Shown here piece after piece: positions 1,437 through 10,811 of a stretch of 64,000 bases of DNA; position 1 is the first letter of the stretch; each line of letters begins with the position of its first letter. A model generated the notes under the pieces. It saw only the letters and a list, made by a program, of their open reading frames with translations. It did not search any database and had not been told where the DNA came from. The translations under genes and the position numbers were made by a program. This DNA comes from Acidobacteriota bacterium (GTDB lineage: Bacteria; Acidobacteriota; Aminicenantia; JBFLYD01): NCBI GenBank assembly GCA_040756905.1, contig JBFLYD010000009.1, positions 4,854 through 68,853 of the forward strand, written 5' to 3'.

Positions 1437-3134
1437 TCAATTTATCGATATAATCCATGGCATTATCGCCAATGCTTTTGAATAAACATTCGATTTTAAA
1501 AATGGGATTGCAAAGAAATGTTTCAAATCTACATTGATTAGATGAGTCTCCCCCTCTGAAGAGTTGAAAATAAGCTGCCAGAGAGTTTTTCTTTTTGGAA
1601 AAAATTCAATAACTACCGATTCCTCTTTTGGGATCTTTGCTTTGGATTTTGCAATCTCAATGGCTTTCAAAACACCACCCACCTCATCTATCAATTTTAA
1701 TTTTTTTGCCTGTTCTCCTGTCCAGACTCTTCCCTTTCCAATTTTATCGATCTCATCTATTTTCATATTTCTTGATGTAGAGACCCTTTTCAGGAATGTT
1801 TCATAAATCCATTTCATTTCTTCGATTATTTTCCCTTTTTCTTCTGGTGAAAATTCCCTGTAATCAGAGAAAAGCTCTGCATATTTTCCTCTACTTATGA
1901 TTTCTTTTGTTATTCCTATTTTATCGTAGAATCCCTTCAGATTGAATTTCCCGTAGATAACCCCGATGGAACCGGTAAAAGACCAAGGCTGACTTATAAT
2001 GTAGTCAGAACCAAGCGATATCCAGTATCCTCCAGAGCCCGCTAAATCAGACATTGATACGATGAGAGGCTTTTTTTCTTTTAAAGTAAGCTCAGCCCTT
2101 AAAATTATATCAGAAGCAATGGCTGAGCCTCCTGGAGAGTCAATCCTTAATACTACTGCTTTTATGGATTTATCATCTTTTACCCTATTTAAAATCTTTG
2201 TCATAGTATCCGATCCAATAAGGGGGGCACCGAAAATAGAATCCTTTCCACTTTCTCCTATATCGATAGCACCAAGCCCATAAACAATTGCTATTTTCTT
2301 TTTTCCCGTTAGAGGAAATTTAACTTTTGAATATTTCTTTATATCAATGAAGTCAAACCCTTCTTTTTTTATTTCGTTCAGGATTTCATCCTCATAGGCT
2401 AATCTATCGATAAGTCCATTTTTTAATGTATCTTCAGGAAGATATGGTCCCTCCTCTATTATCTTTTTTATTTCTTTTAAGTCTTTTTTCCTTGAGTTAG
2501 ATATTTCCCTTAGGAATCTTTCATAATAATCATCTAAAAGAGAATTTGCCATTTCTCTATGGGCGTTGGTGAACTTATTTTCAGTAAAAGTATTGGATGC
2601 TGTTTTATAATCTCCTATGTGTTCGAGCTCTGCTTTTATTCCAAGCTTATCAAGAGTATTTTTGAAAAAGATGTATTCTGATGCGAATCCCTTTATCAGT
2701 AGCAATCCAGTGGGCAAAAGATTTACTTTTGAGCAAGAAGCTATAAAATATTCAAGATTTCCTCCTGTCTCGAGGAAAGTTACAATTTTTTTTCCAGAGC
2801 TTGAAAAATCTTCAAGATAATCTCTTATTTCCTGGGCTTTTGCCCATCCAATTCTTAAAGGATATATCTTTAGATAGATTCCTTTAATTTTTTTGTCATC
2901 CTTTGCTTTTTTTATGTTGACCAGTAAATCCTTTATTGTAAGAGGTTTTTCAAATATAGGAAATCCTCCATAATCGATTATTTCTTCAGGAATGTCACCG
3001 CCAATGCTTATAATAAGGTAGCTATCTTTTTTTACCGTTACCTCTTCCTTTAAGCCAATTATTATGAATGATGCGATTGTAGCAATTATTATGATAAAAA
3101 ATATCAAAAAAATTATTAAAATTGGTTTCCTCAT
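1437..3134 (-). CDS. sppA: Signal peptide peptidase SppA (protease IV, 67K type).
   Basis: 565 aa with an N-terminal TM segment and two ClpP/crotonase-like halves. Motifs include VLRIDSPGGSAIASD and SMSDLAGSGGYWISLGSDYIISQPWSFTGSIGV. Confidence 0.8.
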   Translation of the reverse strand: MRKPILIIFLIFFIIIIATIASFIIIGLKEEVTVKKDSYLIISIGGDIPEEIIDYGGFPIFEKPLTIKDLLVNIKKAKDDKKIKGIYLKIYPLRIGWAKAQEIRDYLEDFSSSGKKIVTFLETGGNLEYFIASCSKVNLLPTGLLLIKGFASEYIFFKNTLDKLGIKAELEHIGDYKTASNTFTENKFTNAHREMANSLLDDYYERFLREISNSRKKDLKEIKKIIEEGPYLPEDTLKNGLIDRLAYEDEILNEIKKEGFDFIDIKKYSKVKFPLTGKKKIAIVYGLGAIDIGESGKDSIFGAPLIGSDTMTKILNRVKDDKSIKAVVLRIDSPGGSAIASDIILRAELTLKEKKPLIVSMSDLAGSGGYWISLGSDYIISQPWSFTGSIGVIYGKFNLKGFYDKIGITKEIISRGKYAELFSDYREFSPEEKGKIIEEMKWIYETFLKRVSTSRNMKIDEIDKIGKGRVWTGEQAKKLKLIDEVGGVLKAIEIAKSKAKIPKEESVVIEFFPKRKTLWQLIFNSSEGETHLINVDLKHFFAIPFLKSNVYSKALAIMPWIISIN

Positions 3135-3396
3135 CCAATCCTCCTTTATAAAATATTTTTTAAAAGATAATTCACCAGCTTCCTCTTTTTTATTAGAGTT
3201 TTTAGCAATTAATTATTCTAATTTATTAATACGAATATTTCCATCAAAAGTTTTTCTTACTGACATGATTGAAAAGACTTAACTTCTTTTCTATTTGATT
3301 AATTTATTTATGCAATTAAGTTTATGATGTTAAAAATCAAAGCTGCATTATTTCATTTTCATTTGAGAAAACCCTCAAATAAGCCAGGCACAAGGG

Positions 3397-3514
3397 GGGT
3401 CAGATCTTCATTATTCATTATTTAAATATTTCATTAATCGGATTCAATGTATTTTCCAAAAAAATATGATAAAAAATAATAATTAATTTTAAACGAATAA
3501 TGAAGATCTGACCC
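3397..3514. repeat. 118-bp element bounded by a perfect 20-bp inverted repeat (gggtcagatcttcattattc / gaataatgaagatctgaccc) around a 78-bp AT-rich core.
   Basis: Arms read directly from the sequence at 3397-3416 and 3495-3514. Lies intergenic between sppA and ubiE. Confidence 0.5.
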
Positions 3515-3695
3515 TATAAACATTGGCCTCTTATGACCCTATAATAAACATAAACACCCAGATTGTCCTCTTATTTAAACCAGGGTTTTTGGTTTTCCCT
3601 TCCGGTTTAGAGAGACTGTTTTAATTTCTCCTGTTCGAATCTTTACTTGATTTATTGTAATTTGGTATCCTCTTAGTCTTTGTAAATTTAGAAAG

Positions 3696-4388
3696 ATGAG
3701 AAAGAAAAAAACTGATGAATTGTTTTCTCTAATTGCTGATAAGTATGACCTTTTAAACCATATCCTGAGTCTGAATGCTGATAGAAGGTGGAGAAAGAAA
3801 CTGGCAGAACTTTTAAGCTTTTCTAAATCTTACAAAATACTGGATGTTTGTGCAGGAACATGTGACTTAGCTATTACCCTTGCTAAAAAAGGTCCAAAAG
3901 CAAAGATTATAGGAATTGATATATCTGAAGATATGTTAAAAATAGGCTTGAGAAAGATAGACAACTTAAACCTTTGTCAAAATATAACCCTTCAGAGAAG
4001 TGATGCTTTTAATCTTCCTTTCAGAGATGAAACCTTTGATGCAGTGACCATTGGCTTTGGCTTGAGGAATTTTCTTGATGTAAAAAAAGGCATAGAAGAA
4101 ATGATACGAGTGCTAAAGAAAGGTGGCGTGCTTTTGATCCTTGAGCTCACACTTCCTGAACAAAGTTTTTTAGCAAAAGTTTATAAATTCTATCTTAAAA
4201 AGATTGTCCCATTAATAGGAGGTTTAATTTCTGGCTCAAAAGCTTCCTATGAATATCTTTCATCATCAATAATAGGTTTTTTCGATCGGGAAGAAATTAT
4301 TGAGTTATTAAAAGAAGAGAAATTAAAAAATATTTATTTAAAAAATTTAAGCTCTGGAATCGCCTGCATCCTTAAAGGCGAGAAATAA
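3696..4388 (+). CDS. ubiE: Demethylmenaquinone/ubiquinone C-methyltransferase (UbiE/MenG family, class I SAM methyltransferase).
   Basis: The N-terminal YDLLNHILSLNADRRWRKK signature is characteristic of UbiE/MenG. The SAM motif ILDVCAGTCDL follows, with a motif II/III region. Confidence 0.75.
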   Translation: MRKKKTDELFSLIADKYDLLNHILSLNADRRWRKKLAELLSFSKSYKILDVCAGTCDLAITLAKKGPKAKIIGIDISEDMLKIGLRKIDNLNLCQNITLQRSDAFNLPFRDETFDAVTIGFGLRNFLDVKKGIEEMIRVLKKGGVLLILELTLPEQSFLAKVYKFYLKKIVPLIGGLISGSKASYEYLSSSIIGFFDREEIIELLKEEKLKNIYLKNLSSGIACILKGEK

Positions 4389-4814
4389 ATTATTCATTTT
4401 ATTCAGTTTTGTATTTCTATTTTTTTATTTTTTCATCGTTTGCCTTACTTGTGACCCATTTTTACCTCACAAAAACATGATGCAATTTTCTTCTACATCT
4501 ATTAATTATTTTAAAAATATTTCTTTTCTGCTAAATTCCCTAAATTTATAGATATTGAGAAGGATTTTTCTATTCTTTTAAAAGCATATGAATATGCACA
4601 AAATTCCTATAATTTCTTATAAATTAAAGCTCAGATTATCAACAAAGTCTGTGGGTGCCTGAAAAATAAAGTTGTATTCAAAAATTATATTTTAGAGAGA
4701 ATATTGGAAAATGTTCTTCGCATTGCCAAATTCGGCGAAGAGAATTTTAATGATAGTGTTGCATCTAATAGCGTAAGATATTATCCCCGGCTTATTTTTA
4801 ATTCTTTAATTATA

Positions 4815-5369
4815 TCATCTCAACCTTTTTAATACCGCTTTTTGGATTACGGAAAATCTGTCTTTAGCCATAAAATCTTTGTATAAACTTTCTGTTAAGG
4901 AGCCTTCTGGATAATTGGTTTTCTCTTGTATAGCCATAAGCTCTGTCACGACAAGCAGGAATTCTACAGAAAATTCTCCCACTTTATCTAATTCTTTGAA
5001 TGGTTCGATATGCTCTGCTTTGAAAAACTGAAGGCTTGGTGGAAATGAATTTACAGGTTTTATTTGACTGAGCATTGCCAAGATATGGTCTTTAAGTTTC
5101 AAAGTTAATAAAGAACTATGAGCATGTTTGACATACATCTCTACAATTAAGTGAACATGAGCGGGGGTGCGTTCTCGTTTGTTTGGCTCTTGGAATTTTA
5201 CAATGAAATCGTAAGGGGATTCTGACTTTCTGCCAGGGTAAACTGCAATTTTAATATTTGTTTTTGTAGTATAAACGACTTCATCTTCTTGAAAGCGTCT
5301 AACTCTCCAAATTTTATAAGATGACTTTATGTAATAGTAAATTGCTACCAATAATTTAAATAATTTCAA
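4815..5369 (-). CDS. Hypothetical protein, last gene of the methyltransferase cassette; candidate nuclease.
   Basis: 184-aa ORF whose start overlaps the upstream stop by 4 nt. Possible PD-(D/E)xK-like pattern PYDFIV...HLIVEMYVKH. No firm family recognised. Confidence 0.4.
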   Translation of the reverse strand: MKLFKLLVAIYYYIKSSYKIWRVRRFQEDEVVYTTKTNIKIAVYPGRKSESPYDFIVKFQEPNKRERTPAHVHLIVEMYVKHAHSSLLTLKLKDHILAMLSQIKPVNSFPPSLQFFKAEHIEPFKELDKVGEFSVEFLLVVTELMAIQEKTNYPEGSLTESLYKDFMAKDRFSVIQKAVLKRLR

Positions 5370-5566
5370 TATTTTACCTCCTCTTGTACGGATGAGGGTG
5401 GACAGACCTCAATTTCTGCTCCACATTCATAACAAAACTCGACATTAAAAGTCATGCTACCAGGAATAGGGCACTCATCTAAGTCAATTCGAGATTTACA
5501 TACAGGGCATCTAATATACCATGTACCATTCTTCCTTTCTTTTGCCTTTGCTTTTCTTACTCTCAT
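5366..5566 (-). CDS. Small 4-Cys zinc-ribbon protein.
   Basis: 66 aa with CPVC...C...CYEC...C. Translationally coupled (4-nt overlaps) between the methyltransferase and the 184-aa ORF. Confidence 0.45.
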   Translation of the reverse strand: MRVRKAKAKERKNGTWYIRCPVCKSRIDLDECPIPGSMTFNVEFCYECGAEIEVCPPSSVQEEVKY

Positions 5567-7164
5567 TTTACCACCTCATAAATAAGTAGATATTGATGTG
5601 TTATTTTCAAATTATTATCTTTTTCTACTTCTTTGATTTCATTATCAGTTTTTTGTTCTTCTTGAGCTACAACTACAATTTCTTTTAACCATAAATTGTC
5701 AGAGACGATTAGATCTACTATTCTTTTGCCAAGAGGTTCAATAAATCCATCCATTCTTACATCCTGCGTTTGGACTACTAAAAATCCACCTTTGTTAACA
5801 TTAGGTAAGCTTTGTATCACGGTCTGTCTTATTTCTTCTAAATAGTGCTCAATGTTTGGCTTTAAAGGGTTATTGTTCAAAAATGTTGCTTTTATAAAAA
5901 GCAGGTCTATCTTCTTTTTCCCATCTTCTTTAGTAAAAGATGCCTGATTTTCAAAATTGACATTAAAATTTATAGTTGAGTATTTACCTCCAATTGAATA
6001 CCTATTAATTACATTTTTGTTTAAACGCTCTTCCAAATCTCTCTCAGGAAATAGCCATACCGTGGTAGTTTCAAGTTCATCTATTTTTTTCAAGGGTATT
6101 TTTTCAAATGCAGGAATAACACCTCCATAATCTAAGCTCTCTTCTCTTAAGGCTAAGGAGGGGGCAAGTGACTCGGGTTTTTCAAAAATTGGTAGATATT
6201 CGTGGGCCAAAAGGAGGAAATTATATTTTGTGCTTTTTTCATACCAAAATCCAGTAGTTTTACAATTATGCTGGCGTTTAATCACCAATTCCCTTATTTT
6301 AAACCCTGCTTCTAAAAAAACATTTATTGTTTGAAATCCTATGGGAATAACATGTTTATGTTTTCTGGTATCTCCGATAAGAATTGCGCATTTTCCGCTA
6401 GGTTTAAGGACACGGTAACTTTCACTTGCAACTTTTTTTATCTCCTTTAAAAAATCTTTAACACCAAGCTTTGATAAGTCACCTTCAACGCTAGAACTAT
6501 AATTAATGATTCCTGCATAAGGAGGGTGAGCACAAATAAGGTCAATACTATTATCTGATATATGAGAGAGAGACCTTGCATCACTTACTGAAACATCGGG
6601 TTCATAGATGGAGAAAGGAAATAGTGTTGTTGGAGGTGAAAATTTTAAATTTTCTAAGGTTAAACCTATACATGCTGGGTTGATGTCTCTAGCTATGCAT
6701 CTTCTACCAAGTAACTTCGCCTCTACTGCTGTAGTTCCACCTCCGACGAAATAATCCAAAACAATATCTCCAGGTTTTGAATATTTCAAGATTACATTCC
6801 TTGGTATGTACGGCGCCCAGTTTCCTCTATATCTTCCATCATGCGTTGCCCAATCTCCTCTTTGTTTAAAACTCCAAACAGTTGTAGTATCTTCTCTAAA
6901 ATTTTTAGGTTCCCAATATTTTATCTTCCTGAGTTTTGTGAGAACCGAAATATTGATTCCATATGCTTCGGTGATAATTTCTTCCAGTTGTCTGAAAGTA
7001 ATTCCAAACAATGTGCCAATTTCTGGATCTGGTATTCCTTTCTCTTTCGCCTTCAATACTGATTCCTTAAATTCTTTTTCACTATGTTGAGAACGTATAT
7101 GCTCCCCTAAATTTCCATAATGCGGCTTCTTGCATATAGGACATTCGCTTGTTAATTTTTGCAT
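5563..7164 (-). CDS. DNA methyltransferase of the N6-adenine/N4-cytosine family (PF01555-like) with an N-terminal zinc finger, an HTH region and a C-terminal degenerate methyltransferase-like module.
   Basis: The AdoMet motif VLDYFVGGGTTAVEAKLLGRRCIARDINP (FxGxG) is preceded by TTTVWSF...NWAPYIP. A catalytic-type IDLICAHPPYAG (xPPY) motif and VLKPSGKCAILIGD follow. The N-terminus carries a CPICKKPHYGNLGEHIRSQH C2H2-like finger. Confidence 0.75.
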   Translation of the reverse strand: MQKLTSECPICKKPHYGNLGEHIRSQHSEKEFKESVLKAKEKGIPDPEIGTLFGITFRQLEEIITEAYGINISVLTKLRKIKYWEPKNFREDTTTVWSFKQRGDWATHDGRYRGNWAPYIPRNVILKYSKPGDIVLDYFVGGGTTAVEAKLLGRRCIARDINPACIGLTLENLKFSPPTTLFPFSIYEPDVSVSDARSLSHISDNSIDLICAHPPYAGIINYSSSVEGDLSKLGVKDFLKEIKKVASESYRVLKPSGKCAILIGDTRKHKHVIPIGFQTINVFLEAGFKIRELVIKRQHNCKTTGFWYEKSTKYNFLLLAHEYLPIFEKPESLAPSLALREESLDYGGVIPAFEKIPLKKIDELETTTVWLFPERDLEERLNKNVINRYSIGGKYSTINFNVNFENQASFTKEDGKKKIDLLFIKATFLNNNPLKPNIEHYLEEIRQTVIQSLPNVNKGGFLVVQTQDVRMDGFIEPLGKRIVDLIVSDNLWLKEIVVVAQEEQKTDNEIKEVEKDNNLKITHQYLLIYEVVK

Positions 7165-7706
7165 TTTAATTATAAATATTGCGATTCTATTTAAATACTT
7201 TCATTGCTCGCTGTTTTACCCAATTTATTTATATTTAAACAATTTAGAATACATTTCTTTTTTATAAATATCCACATTAATTTTTTTACTAACTTTATCT
7301 CCCCATGCATCTTCTGCCATACCTTTTCTTTATTTTTATATAATTATTCCTGATTAAAAATCAATTTTTTCTCATTGTCGTTTTTTTAAATCTATTAGCT
7401 CTATCCTCTTTTCTTATACTAAACAGACTAATTAAAAATTAACTAGCCAGCACATTGTTTAAATCTATAGTATAATTACACTGAAGATTTATATTTTTGT
7501 TCTTATATAAATATAAAGCTCAGACATAAAATCATTGTTATAAATTTTACATAATTTTGTTGAAATTATGATAGATTGATACTAAACTCCTTAAAAAAAG
7601 AAAAAATAGTATTGAAGTGATTTTTCTATACTTTTTAAGTTCTTTTAAATTCCTTAAAATTCCTATGATTCCCTACAAATTAATCACACTCATTATGTAT
7701 ATGTCT

Positions 7707-7736
7707 TCGGGATAAAAGTAGTCCCGATATGTCGGG
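7707..7736 (-). terminator. Overlapping hairpins (tcggga-N9-tcccga and cccga-tatg-tcggg) downstream of the 7800-8315 gene; possible terminator.
   Basis: Stem-loops read directly from the sequence. On the minus strand there is only a weak U-rich segment (ACUUUUAU) after the stem. Confidence 0.3.
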
Positions 7737-7799
7737 ATTCGGGTAAATCTTCAATTTCTCTTTTATCCAATGTTAGCCACCGGCGAAATATTATTCCTA

Positions 7800-8315
7800 T
7801 CATGGCTTATTTGTTTCAATCAAAACCTTTCGATAAAGGTCATAAATAGCGTTAATTATAGGTTTCAATTCATATTTATCTCCTCTAAAAGTAAGCGCCC
7901 AAGTCGTATCTTCAAAATTACGAAGAAAATCCTCTGTATCTATTCCAGCTATCATGTTAGATAGACCAATATTTGAATCAACAAAATTATGTCTTTTAGA
8001 TGACATGATCCAAGTTTCTAATCTTTCATCAAAATGTTCAAAATGATTCCTAAAATTCCTTGGATGTATAGGAGAATTATCTTCGATACCTAAACTTTTT
8101 CTCAATTCTTCTCCCCTTTTTTGAGATTCTTTTTTTGATGGCCAAAAAATTTTAGATATATTACCAATAGCTACTAAGAAATTTTGTATCGCATACCAAA
8201 CTATATCGGAATTAATGTTTAATAATCCAGATTTTATTTCATCTATAGCAGTAATTGCAAATTTACATTGTCGCTCAATTTCTATCAGAAATATTTTTAA
8301 AACCATTTTTTCCAT
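7800..8315 (-). CDS. Hypothetical protein with a HEPN-like Rx4H motif (possible RNase, abortive-infection type).
   Basis: 171 aa. HPRNFRNHFEHFDERLE contains RNFRNH and RNHFEH, matching Rx4-6H. An isolated gene flanked by long AT-rich spacers. Confidence 0.4.
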   Translation of the reverse strand: MEKMVLKIFLIEIERQCKFAITAIDEIKSGLLNINSDIVWYAIQNFLVAIGNISKIFWPSKKESQKRGEELRKSLGIEDNSPIHPRNFRNHFEHFDERLETWIMSSKRHNFVDSNIGLSNMIAGIDTEDFLRNFEDTTWALTFRGDKYELKPIINAIYDLYRKVLIETNKP

Positions 8316-8422
8316 TTTAATTATTCCTTATTTTTCGCTATTGCATATCATGATCGGCATAAAAGAAGTTGGAAGAATTTGAGTGAGACTTTTGTGCCAT
8401 GCTAGATGCCGTTTCCGTTTAA

Positions 8423-9133
8423 CTAAAGAAGTTTTCCCAGATGCATTTCACTAGGATATTTAAATATTGGTTTAATTTTAAGTTCTAAAATAGGATGATC
8501 TGGACACGTAATTTCGATTATGCCCCCGGCACCTTGTGGCGTATCTATCTTCCCAAACGCTATGCCCTGACCATTTCCATCATAAAATTTTCCTTGGAAC
8601 TGAACGCGGTTGTCCTTAACTCTAATCTGTAAAACAATATCTCCTGTTTCATCCTTCACTTCTAAAGCATCCTTTGTAAAATTTCGATCAAATGCCTTTT
8701 CCTTTTTTATCTTCCATTCATTAGCTAGAAGTTCTGCAACCACCTCACCCTTTTTATTTCGGATTATGGTAGAAATCTTTAAATTCCCATTTTCTGTCCA
8801 GATAGTAAGACAATTATCTTCAAAGATTTTAAATAAAGGTGATCCCTCAGGGCCTCTATAGTCAAGAATTGCGCCTGAATCACCAAATTCAAATTGAGGG
8901 TATTGCTTTTCTTGCGGGTCTAATAAGATCGTTTTTGATTTATTTTCCAATTTGCCTGCATACTTTGAGATCTCTTTATCCATATATTCCTTTCTCTGAA
9001 TAACAAATTGAATAATTGCTCCTAAAATTATCAGGAATACCATAGCGATTGTGAGCCATGAAGGGATTACCCTCGGTTTAAGCCAGCCGATAATTGCAAT
9101 AATTGCCATGATTACTATTAATAAATATTTCAT
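8423..9133 (-). CDS. Membrane-anchored hypothetical protein.
   Basis: 236 aa with two N-terminal TM helices (LLIVIMAIIAIIGWL and LTIAMVFLIILGAIIQFVI) followed by a globular domain. No family recognised. Confidence 0.5.
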   Translation of the reverse strand: MKYLLIVIMAIIAIIGWLKPRVIPSWLTIAMVFLIILGAIIQFVIQRKEYMDKEISKYAGKLENKSKTILLDPQEKQYPQFEFGDSGAILDYRGPEGSPLFKIFEDNCLTIWTENGNLKISTIIRNKKGEVVAELLANEWKIKKEKAFDRNFTKDALEVKDETGDIVLQIRVKDNRVQFQGKFYDGNGQGIAFGKIDTPQGAGGIIEITCPDHPILELKIKPIFKYPSEMHLGKLL

Positions 9134-9641
9134 CTTGAACTCTTCATTTTTAGGAAATAGCTTTATCTGGGTTTATATTCGAAGTGGTTCAAACATTCCT
9201 CCATTTTTGTGTTATATCCGAATTACTTTGAACAAACATTATGTCTCTCCCTTTCAAGCTATCTTTTCTTTTTTATAATATATTATTCTTTGTTAAAAAA
9301 ATCAATTTTTTTTATCATTTTTTTCAATTTCTCAACTCCGCTCTAATATGTTAAATGTAAGTATCTCTGAGTAATTGACAAAGATTGGTGAGCTAAAAGT
9401 TTTTTTACACATCCTTAGAAATTAAATTTCCTAAAATACAGTGCGGCTTCAATATAACTTTGTATATAAGGAGAAATTTCATTTATATATTTTTGATTAC
9501 TTTGTTATTTTGGAGATGGTATTGTCCTTACATACTAAAAGACCTCCTATTATCCTCCTATTTAAACACGTTGTTTTGAAAATATTTTAAAACGACAATG
9601 ATAAAATAAGCATAATTTTACTTGGTTGAAAAAATATTAAG

Positions 9642-9714
9642 TGGAGCTGAGGGGATTTGAACCCCCGACCTCATGACTGCCAGTCATGCGCGCTCCCAGC
9701 TGCGCTACAGCCCC
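9642..9714 (-). tRNA. tRNA-Ala (anticodon GGC).
   Basis: The reverse complement GGGGCTGTAGCGCAGCTGGGAGCGCGCATGACTGGCAGTCATGAGGTCGGGGGTTCAAATCCCCTCAGCTCCA folds by hand into a cloverleaf. Acceptor 7 bp, D-arm GCGC/GCGC, anticodon stem CATGA/TCATG with loop CTGGCAG, T-arm GGGGG/CCCCT with TTCAAAT. The G3:U70 Ala identity pair is present. CCA is not encoded. Confidence 0.9.
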
Positions 9715-9725
9715 ATTTAATTTAT

Positions 9726-9731
9726 ATTATA
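9726..9731 (-). promoter_or_regulatory. Perfect TATAAT -10 hexamer about 12 nt upstream of the mature tRNA-Ala 5' end.
   Basis: attata on the plus strand is TATAAT on the minus strand. No convincing -35 at canonical spacing. Confidence 0.3.
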
Positions 9732-10031
9732 ATTTTTTTTATTTTTTGCAAATATATAATTCTTTCAAATTTTAATATGCAGCCCTTAAAAATTTGATAG
9801 GCATTAAATAATCCTTCCTTTATAAATGTAAAAGATGAATTTAGAAGATAATAATTGGGTGAAGCATTAAGATATCATTATCTGATGAGAAATCTGCCCT
9901 CTTAAAATTATCTATAAATTGAAAACTGGTGAAGAAGCCATCGTAAAATAGATTTTTGAAAAACTATTTTATGGAAAAATTGACATTTATAAGTTGAAAT
10001 GGATATTATTCAGTGAAAACTTTAAAGATAA

Positions 10032-10811
10032 ATGATTTATGAGTTTGAAGCTGAAATAATAGAGAAAAAAATCTGGTCAAATAAATATTGCTGCTTATCT
10101 TTAAAAATTCCTTTTGATAAAATCGAATTAAAACCAGGGCAATTTTTTATGGTAAAAGTGCAGGAGAATTTTCCTCTTTTAAGAAGACCTCTTGCAGTGA
10201 TGGATTTCGAAGAATCCTCCTTAAAGTTTTTTTTCCAGAGAGTTGGAATTGGAACTGAAATTTTATTTTTTAAAAAAGTAGGAGAAAGGGTTAGAATTCT
10301 CGGTCCATTTGGGAATGGGTTTTCTTATCCTGAAGAAAAGAAAAAGTCAGTTTTATTGATTGCAGGAGGAAGGGGCATATCTCCTATTTTCTATTTGGCT
10401 AAAAAGATGTATGAACATAGAATACCATTTGTGTTAATTTATGGCGGAAAAGCAAAGGAAGATATTCCCTTGATGGAGGAATTAGAAGAAAATAGCTTTA
10501 ATGTTGTCTATGTAACCGAGGACGGCTCCTTCGGGAAAAAAGGCATGGTAATAGATTTCATCGAAGAGATTGTTAAAAAGAAACAAATCTCCTCTATATA
10601 TTCATGTGGACCAGTAGAGATGCTCAAAAAGGTCTCTTATTTTTCTGAAAGAATTGACATAGAAAGCTTAATATCTCTTGAGATTATAATGGGGTGCGGG
10701 TTTGGAGCATGCTGGGGGTGTGCTGTAAGGATTAGAGAAAATGGAAAAGAGTGTTTTAAAAAAGCATGTGTTGATGGACCTGTGTTCAAATCAGAGGAGA
10801 TAGTATGGTAG
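10032..10811 (+). CDS. pyrK: Dihydroorotate dehydrogenase electron-transfer subunit PyrK (FAD/NAD-binding, 2Fe-2S).
   Basis: 259 aa with the C-terminal cluster motif CGFGACWGCAV...C. Overlaps pyrD by 7 nt. Confidence 0.85.
   Translation: MIYEFEAEIIEKKIWSNKYCCLSLKIPFDKIELKPGQFFMVKVQENFPLLRRPLAVMDFEESSLKFFFQRVGIGTEILFFKKVGERVRILGPFGNGFSYPEEKKKSVLLIAGGRGISPIFYLAKKMYEHRIPFVLIYGGKAKEDIPLMEELEENSFNVVYVTEDGSFGKKGMVIDFIEEIVKKKQISSIYSCGPVEMLKKVSYFSERIDIESLISLEIIMGCGFGACWGCAVRIRENGKECFKKACVDGPVFKSEEIVW

Follow-up and report, generated by a model that had tools for sequence, protein, structure and literature searches.

Do the five genes that separate ubiE from a tRNA-Ala gene in an Acidobacteriota genome form a single defence system, an integrated island, or something more composite? 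The locus lies within a stretch of 64,000 nucleotides (the window; contig JBFLYD010000009.1 of assembly GCA_040756905.1, positions 4,854 to 68,853), and all coordinates below count from the first nucleotide of that stretch. The original prediction, made from the sequence alone, suggested that the five open reading frames (ORFs) may be parts of one undescribed restriction-like or abortive-infection system beside a tRNA gene. We favor a different explanation, to which we give a probability of about 0.6 as a whole: three accessory units, acquired independently and each self-contained elsewhere, would make up the interval 4389-9640 as a small mosaic. Unit 1 (4815-7164) would be a Type II-like restriction-modification (R-M) operon, made up of a methyltransferase of 533 residues (MT533), a putative zinc ribbon of 66 residues (Zn66) and a protein of 184 residues (R184). 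Unit 2 is a stand-alone gene for a protein of 171 residues (H171), and Unit 3 is a gene for a protein of 236 residues (M236). Together they make up a small islet of the defence type, a kind of locus that is well known, and its defence phenotype is predicted from its genes.

All five minus-strand ORFs in the ORF list, and the tRNA-Ala gene called by ARAGORN and Rfam, were found where they had first been placed. The distance between the conserved blocks had been underestimated at about 4.7 kb; from the end of ubiE at 4388 (Pfam Ubie_methyltran, 5.5e-61) to the tRNA gene, the interval measures 5.25 kb. The frame originally read as pyrK begins at 10032 (ORF list), beyond the tRNA gene. In the source genome, the interval corresponds to locus tags AB1410_00925 to AB1410_00945.

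The islet is foreign in composition, and its three units are independent of one another. CTAG occurs 12 times in the window, and seven of these sites (6398, 6491, 6689, 7443, 8402, 8451 and 8725) fall within the 5.25-kb interval, which is 8% of the length and, at the host rate, would be expected to hold 0.45 (Poisson P = 5e-7). The other five are spread over 58.7 kb, an observed/expected ratio of 0.08. A check of GC content and codon usage had been proposed, and its outcome was mixed: in GC and in GC at third codon positions (GC3) the five genes resemble the genes that flank them, but CTAG clusters in the islet. Homologues of each unit sit amid differing neighborhoods or housekeeping genes in unrelated phyla, and similarity to other genomes at the DNA level breaks off within about 50 nt of the ORFs of each unit. 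The view of the stretch as accessory and foreign therefore holds for all three units. The host-like GC and GC3 would suit a locus that holds conserved hypothetical housekeeping genes and was inherited vertically. However, such a locus is scarcely credible given the CTAG clustering, the presence of R184 copies with 60-90% identity in more than 25 phyla, Archaea included, in differing contexts, and the occurrence of the H171 family on plasmids and viral contigs as well.

The independence of the units bears directly on the proposal of a single new defence system with all five genes as its components. In its favor, the genes lie on one strand at close spacing, and the spacers upstream of the methyltransferase and the 236-residue genes share a homologous segment of ~330 bp. 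Against this, none of the 67 loci with a methyltransferase/R184 pair has a homologue of H171 or M236 within 6 kb, and none of the loci fetched for the H171 and M236 families holds the pair or a member of the other family. The units also lie 107-635 bp apart, a terminator-like hairpin follows the H171 gene, and DNA homology stops at the borders of each unit rather than running across them. We regard the single-system proposal as largely refuted.

The tRNA-Ala(GGC) gene (9641-9714, minus strand; Rfam tRNA, 66.7 bits) is intact and marks the boundary of the islet. Its 3' end points toward the islet, which together with the foreign composition would suit a classical integrase-mediated island inserted at the tRNA 3' end, the route of entry originally suggested. 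But there is no integrase, recombinase or transposase ORF of at least 50 residues in 4389-9640, the five proteins have no recombinase matches, and the 3' segment of the tRNA gene is not repeated in 3000-10500, where an Rfam scan found the tRNA and nothing else. The repeats that do exist run from spacer to spacer and are not derived from the tRNA. Tallying these points, we consider tRNA-directed integration improbable. Relatives suited to a synteny comparison were sought with three queries: pyrK against 185,579 species genomes returned no relative for synteny, the exact tRNA-Ala sequence had no match among metagenome contigs, and pyrD had one 49%-identical match in metagenomes, on a 3.5-kb contig, yielding no usable relative. 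An exact look-up of MT533 returned no record.

Unit 1 carries most of the evidence for the favored explanation. MT533 is encoded on the minus strand at 5563-7164. Its residues 79-329 match the PADLOC MTase_II model PDLC03376 from end to end (3.5e-98), Pfam N6_N4_Mtase is matched at 3e-27, and the solved relatives in the Protein Data Bank (PDB) are TTHA0409, M.MboIIA, CcrM and M.RsrI. These matches bear out the initial reading of the ORF and strongly support its prediction as a DNA methyltransferase. Residues 1-78 read as a C2H2-like zinc finger and a probable helix-turn-helix. The active domain (residues 79-331) has motif I, FVGGG, at 139-143, followed by motif IV, HPPY, at 213-216. Residues 332-533 (window 5563-6171) repeat the catalytic domain in degenerate form (BLASTP E 3e-8 for the internal duplication). 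This C-terminal duplicate lacks both motifs, and MT533 looks like a fused pseudo-dimer. It would be an amino-methyltransferase in which an active domain is joined to a dead copy, the two acting as a built-in pseudo-dimer to methylate the target site in host DNA. HPPY is invariant in all ~50 partner methyltransferases examined, and the short-form methyltransferases, including most archaeal ones, are without the second half. A literature search for an HPPY-motif methyltransferase gave nothing relevant, the one apparent match being a typographical error for R.HpyAXII.

R184 (4815-5369, minus strand) lies downstream of MT533, and the gene for Zn66 (5366-5566, minus strand) lies between them, with 4-nt overlaps at both junctions. 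A gene for R184 was found in 67 genomes, counting one genome per species, and these span more than 25 bacterial and archaeal lineages at phylum level. In a tblastn comparison of the window proteins with all loci, an intact R184 copy always adjoins a homologue of the same HPPY-motif methyltransferase wherever upstream sequence is present, usually overlapping it or a few nt away. The exceptions are nine decayed fragments of the R184 gene found alone. At 22 loci an intact long methyltransferase is directly followed by an intact R184 gene. At six loci both partners are of a short form, the methyltransferase having a single domain; most of the archaeal hosts in the scan fall in this group, and three more loci are near-variants of it. 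The tight cassette that had been proposed is thus a conserved pair across the 67-locus survey. The genes flanking it vary from genome to genome, and this variation around a linked pair therefore identifies a horizontally mobile two-gene module.

Decay within the module is uneven. Three loci (L042, L052 and L057) have an intact methyltransferase and a frameshifted R184 gene. The reverse, an intact R184 gene beside a broken methyltransferase, occurs at one locus (L025), for which a second contig (L001) carries undamaged versions of these genes. That decay strikes the R184 gene first suggests that R184 is the toxic partner. Translationally coupled and downstream, R184 would attack DNA that lacks the mark of the methyltransferase; a role as restriction partner would explain both the lack of intact copies that stand apart from the methyltransferase and the tendency of R184 to be the first to decay.

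Related loci show a further kind of change. In six of them, a single replacement has removed the C-terminal part of the methyltransferase together with the first 53-59 residues of R184. Five of the six inserts match or closely resemble a nuclease of the Mrr/NucS_C type or the PLD+DpnI_C type. Nucleases of both types are of kinds that cut methylated DNA. The insert in L050 is a NucS_C/Mrr-like nuclease by family match, accompanied by a zinc ribbon, and has homologues in L043, L046 and L076. L054 carries a PLD+DpnI_C nuclease, and L049 and L061 have an ORF of 258-277 residues without an identified family, also with a zinc ribbon. At both L050 (4179-6387) and L054 (3474-5750), an intact ORF for the N-terminal 225 residues of the methyltransferase and one for the C-terminal 135 residues of R184 remain. 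These two loci come from different phyla and have different inserts, and their junctions are identical: the left one just after HPPYANIIHY..EG and the right one just before KRERTPAHVH, the most conserved stretches of the two genes. Identical junctions at such stretches fit homologous-recombination arms, and the replacement looks, from these sequences, like an allelic swap through homology arms.

The R184 family itself is large and strongly conserved. It comprises 174 cluster representatives at E <= 1e-3 and 486 close homologues, of which the 120 listed have identities of 72-86%. Sources of these homologues include Acidobacteriota (the source metagenome-assembled genome, MAG), Nitrospirota, Chloroflexota, Dehalococcoidia and an Archaeoglobaceae archaeon; none was found in IMG/VR viral contigs or in plasmids. 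Across 69 diverse members, G46, D54, H71, K81 and E149 are near-invariant and position 77 is E or D; E149 lies within the motif QEKTNYP. Among the distant homologues are proteins fused to a TIR domain or to a Dam-class methyltransferase; the names of ten distant-homologue clusters are empty except for 'DNA adenine methylase', given to a fusion protein. The best AlphaFold2 model has helix 2-25, strands 30-34, 40-45 and 55-60, and then further helices. D54 precedes the third strand, and the E77/K81 segment, with ExxxK spacing, is a helix at low confidence (predicted local distance difference test, pLDDT, 57).

From the gene linkage, the translational coupling, the pattern of decay, the domain fusions and the replacements, we consider it somewhat better than an even bet that R184 is the restriction partner. 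Several results weigh against that reading and against Unit 1 as an R-M operon. R184 has no match in Pfam, PADLOC (including its restriction-enzyme models), NCBIfam or PHROGs. A profile of the 69 diverse members found no solved relative in the PDB, the best hit being a ribosomal protein at E 0.1. With a bona fide NucS_C/Mrr-type PD-(D/E)xK domain, hhalign gave a probability of 0.9%, although the insignificant alignment still pairs D54 and E77 of R184 with the catalytic D and E of that domain. The structural model is weak, with a best pLDDT of 72.8 and the other four models below 50. HPPY departs from the canonical (D/N/S)PPY, and DNA as the substrate of MT533 is predicted by homology. Finally, R184 is nearer to the window copy than the methyltransferase is in 22/22 intact pairs (median identity 75% vs 58%). 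Restriction enzymes usually diverge faster than their methyltransferases, and the conservation seen here is the opposite. The PD-(D/E)xK-like signature originally noted in R184 accordingly survives as a conserved acidic/Lys set but finds no nuclease fold in profile searches, and membership in that class is neither supported nor excluded. Judged by the refuting condition set at the outset, a lack of any nuclease fold in profile searches, the predicted nuclease roles of R184 and H171 count as unproven and not as refuted.

The same observations are the main source of an alternative, in which the methyltransferase acts in effect as an orphan or as a regulatory enzyme and R184 is a non-nuclease DNA-binding accessory, either a target-recognition or methylation-reading subunit, or a regulator. 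The main argument for it is the higher conservation of R184 in all 22 pairs, and it would also account for the failure to detect a nuclease family or fold. A paralogue of R184, described below, weakly matches NucS_N, a PH-like DNA-binding domain (E 0.003), and the TIR and Dam fusions would suit a sensor or recognition domain as well. However, the methyltransferase already has a putative N-terminal DNA-binding region and a second, dead domain. Frameshifts that strike R184 first, and the joint replacements, are easier to understand if R184 is harmful in the absence of methylation. The polar set D54, H71, (E/D)77, K81 and E149 also looks catalytic and not purely structural. On balance we think an accessory role unlikely, if far from negligible, and continue to read R184 as a candidate restriction effector.

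What lies between the two genes of the module varies, and in most cassettes there is nothing. Zn66 is Cys-rich, and its Pfam zinc-ribbon matches are weak (best 6e-4), in line with its first description as a zinc ribbon. It has a homologue with 71% identity in the genome of only one other species, a Chloroflexota MAG (JACAEN010000016, loci L006 and L018). Zn66 is an optional, translationally coupled component of the module and would be an add-on, possibly a regulator. Other cassettes have an ORF of 176-192 residues in this place, for example L003:7469-7999, L014:2585-3127, L012:4873-5442 and L033:1957-2535. This ORF encodes the distant paralogue of R184 mentioned above (hhalign probability 92%, E 6e-7), which keeps the D, H, D/E, K and QE-x-NYP positions. 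A second copy of this kind would fit a two-subunit enzyme. Three loci have two intervening ORFs, the extra one being of 186-190 residues in L012 and L033 and of 136 residues in L042. The additional copy in L012 has a weak SwaI-like match (E 0.03). Separately, the Archaeoglobaceae locus (L001:4569-4961, L002:1-314) has an ORF of 130 residues just upstream of the methyltransferase, whose weak precomputed match to GIY_YIG_3 was not reproduced by a Pfam scan.

These features allow a bolder proposal. The QEKTNYP family might represent restriction effectors of a novel structural class, with no known fold and with nuclease or base-excising activity, acting as a homodimer or as a heterodimer with its paralogue. 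Its constant sequence across Bacteria and Archaea would stem from close co-adaptation with the pseudo-dimeric HPPY methyltransferase, and would also make the cassette a fixed landing pad for methyl-directed nuclease genes, which replace it through homologous recombination. We offer this as speculation, and would not expect it to hold in full. If R184 is a restriction enzyme, its family is one that the PADLOC-DB, Pfam and NCBIfam models miss, and carriers in more than 25 phyla would be scored as having an orphan methyltransferase only. The extreme conservation, the HPPY motif and the dead duplicate domain make the pair attractive for biochemical work and for the discovery of enzymes, thermophilic sources included.

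A hint of specificity comes from the sequences around the module. GATC is the most depleted 4-mer palindrome flanking intact cassettes, with 276 sites observed vs 779 expected (0.35). The observed/expected ratio is 0.22 in the flanks of short-form cassettes and 0.43 in the window outside 4389-9640, compared with 0.65 in 12 unrelated loci; the flanks were taken from L011-L077, and the control is small and taxonomically different, so that the comparison is confounded by taxonomy. Taken with a DpnI_C (G-m6A-TC-binding) replacement gene and a Dam-class fusion, this depletion makes a GATC-containing site a reasonable guess. We treat GATC as suggestive and do not claim it as the recognition site. 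A different palindrome, CTAG, is nearly absent from the host, which may reflect a repair bias or a restriction system specific for CTAG somewhere in its genome; no such depletion is seen in the islet.

The gene of Unit 2 (H171, 7800-8315, minus strand) had been assigned a HEPN-type motif. The Rx4H motif, R89-N-H-F-E-H94 at window 8034-8051, is real: R86, R89, F92, E93, H94, F95 and D96 are invariant in 35 aligned homologues that are 53-81% identical to H171. The family comprises 371 homologues. The AlphaFold2 model (pLDDT 85.4) has helices 3-32, 36-57, 62-75, 96-105 and 150-168 and a small β-sheet, and the motif sits in a poorly ordered, low-confidence loop before helix 96-105. Elsewhere the gene is solitary, either amid housekeeping genes or beside toxin-antitoxin, AbiJ or transposase genes, and DNA-level similarity to other genomes is lost about 30 nt upstream and within about 45 nt of the ORF ends. 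Distant relatives with 26-47% identity occur on three viral contigs (IMG/VR; L081, L082 and L083) and 13 plasmids, among them plasmids of Rubrobacter, Alteromonas and Bacillus cereus; 12 of the 13 plasmid proteins are named 'hypothetical protein', and the 13th record is unannotated. In Alteromonas, a WYL-domain gene and a HEPN gene of the LA2681 family are found nearby.

Through R89 and H94, H171 would probably act as a metal-independent RNase in abortive infection. A number of searches count against this. No HEPN or AbiV profile in Pfam, NCBIfam or PADLOC matches H171, in keeping with the first reading, in which none of the small proteins matched a family that could be named. Pfam HEPN models matched none of 35 family members (E up to 1) and none of six distant plasmid or viral relatives (E up to 5), and neither a PDB profile search nor Foldseek (best E 1.8) matched H171 to a solved HEPN structure. 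An RNA partner of the abiV2 or ToxI kind was sought upstream, where the 107 nt fold no better than shuffled sequences (z = 0.7) and contain no tandem repeats. The motif of the HEPN assignment thus stands, while the profile and fold that should accompany it were not recovered. We keep the HEPN-type RNase as a tentative assignment with slightly less than even odds.

M236 (8423-9133, minus strand), the gene of Unit 3, has two N-terminal hydrophobic helices, readable as transmembrane segments, and a C-terminal soluble domain of ~175 residues, which agrees with its first description as membrane-anchored. Its 81 homologues have no informative names, and it matches nothing in the Pfam, PADLOC, NCBIfam or PHROGs family libraries. 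Two contexts were examined elsewhere. In one, the gene lies beside TIR_2, Eco57I/BsuBI-PstI R-M genes and an ORC/Cdc6-like gene; in the other, it lies beside BrnT/BrnA. M236 therefore reads as a solitary accessory gene, probably membrane-anchored and associated with defence genes in both contexts, with which it would travel. Small solitary defence-type genes gathering at one spot, as H171 and M236 do here, are the usual pattern and unremarkable.

The units are set in unusually long spacers, which also speak for an accessory stretch. Intergenic gaps in the window have a median of 8 bp, and four of the eight gaps of at least 300 bp in 64 kb fall within 3.1-10 kb. Spacer 1 (4389-4814, 426 bp, AT-rich) lies between the stop codons of ubiE and R184; spacer 2 (7165-7799, 635 bp, GC 0.24) separates Units 1 and 2; and spacer 3 (9134-9640, 507 bp) runs from the start of M236 to the 3' end of the tRNA gene. 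Their GC content is 0.24-0.28 in the gap table, in which the third spacer is entered as 9134-10031 and extends beyond the tRNA. Spacers of 400-640 bp had been described between all units; the three just listed agree, but the gap between the H171 and M236 genes is only 107 bp.

Two direct repeats connect the spacers. Repeat B in spacer 1 (about 4503-4627) resembles B' in spacer 2 (7552-7683), with a Smith-Waterman score of 37 vs 17.9 ± 2.6 in dinucleotide shuffles (z = 7.3) and a core of 74% identity across 80 nt (blastn E 4e-6). Repeat A' in spacer 2 (7228-7561) resembles A in spacer 3 (9172-9506), with a score of 43 vs 18.4 ± 2.4 in shuffles (z = 10); its core pairs 7320-7391 with 9260-9328 at 77% identity (E 3e-8). 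No further comparable copy of either repeat was found in the 64-kb window. Along the plus strand, B is followed in turn by the R-M operon, A', B', the H171 and M236 genes, A and tRNA-Ala. R-M insertion 'with long target duplication' has been described with repeats of 46 to >400 bp (PMC2853133), and the order here fits two successive insertions, each duplicating part of one original intergenic sequence. We put this forward as a hypothesis only, because repeat identity is just 60-77% and there is no empty site to compare. The repeats could instead be duplicated promoter and terminator regions. A scan for promoters and terminators was at chance level (32 promoter-like sites vs 29.4 ± 5.9), with the sole exception of the terminator-like hairpin at 7722-7737 in spacer 2, on the minus strand downstream of the H171 gene. 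That the spacers travel with the cassettes was considered and rejected, as similarity to other genomes does not extend past the borders of the ORFs. On the other side of ubiE, a 23-nt inverted repeat (3397-3419 and 3492-3514, 96% complementary, 72 nt apart) sits in the 561-bp divergent intergenic region between an sppA-like gene and ubiE.

How do these proteins compare with known systems? With PD-(D/E)xK endonucleases, R184 shares the conserved set D54 ... (E/D)77-x3-K81 and the position of D54 at the start of a predicted β-strand. It differs in having ExxxK instead of ExK, in the helical E77/K81 segment of its low-confidence model, and in the lack of a profile or structure match. H171 is best compared with lactococcal AbiV, a HEPN RNase of an abortive-infection/type III toxin-antitoxin system that has an upstream antitoxin RNA, abiV2; AbiV has 201 residues, the motif 91-RNHKSKH-97 in a flexible segment, a β-hairpin and a four-helix core (bioRxiv 10.1101/2024.05.05.592566). 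H171 is unlike AbiV in having no HEPN/AbiV profile, no match to a solved structure and no structured upstream RNA akin to abiV2. It is like AbiV in size (171 vs 201 residues), in an RNH-initial motif (89-94 vs 91-97) within a flexible segment, in a helical-bundle core with a β-hairpin, and in a single-gene mobile distribution; one relative of H171, P0211, bears the UniRef name 'AbiV family'.

The closest parallel for Unit 1 is the Type II R-M operon with an N6A/N4C methyltransferase of the β/γ type. Shared features are a methyltransferase of the N6_N4_Mtase lineage, a small, translationally coupled downstream partner, a compact and mobile two-gene unit, the loss of the partner first, and direct repeats flanking the unit, as in long target duplication (PMC2853133). 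Unit 1 is unlike such operons in that motif IV is HPPY and not (D/N/S)PPY in every member, motif I precedes motif IV in MT533 where the Pfam family model has the reverse, the methyltransferase carries a dead internal duplicate, and the partner, which matches none of the known families of restriction enzymes, is the better conserved of the two proteins. For membership in Type II R-M systems, then, the methyltransferase and the gene linkage are in place, and the endonuclease role of R184 is a prediction. What is new here is the uncharacterised, highly conserved 184-residue family, the HPPY pseudo-dimeric methyltransferase and the replacement cassettes in related loci. The last of these recall the dam-replacing gene (drg) of Neisseria (PMC516771, PMC4269198). 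Unlike drg, the swap is seen in related loci and not in the window, its arms lie inside both genes, and it extends over several phyla. As with drg, a methyltransferase is exchanged for a nuclease of a methyl-directed type, in one case with a DpnI_C 'Dam-replacing' domain, and the replacement cassettes may record a direct, gene-level conflict between systems that protect by methylation and systems that target it.

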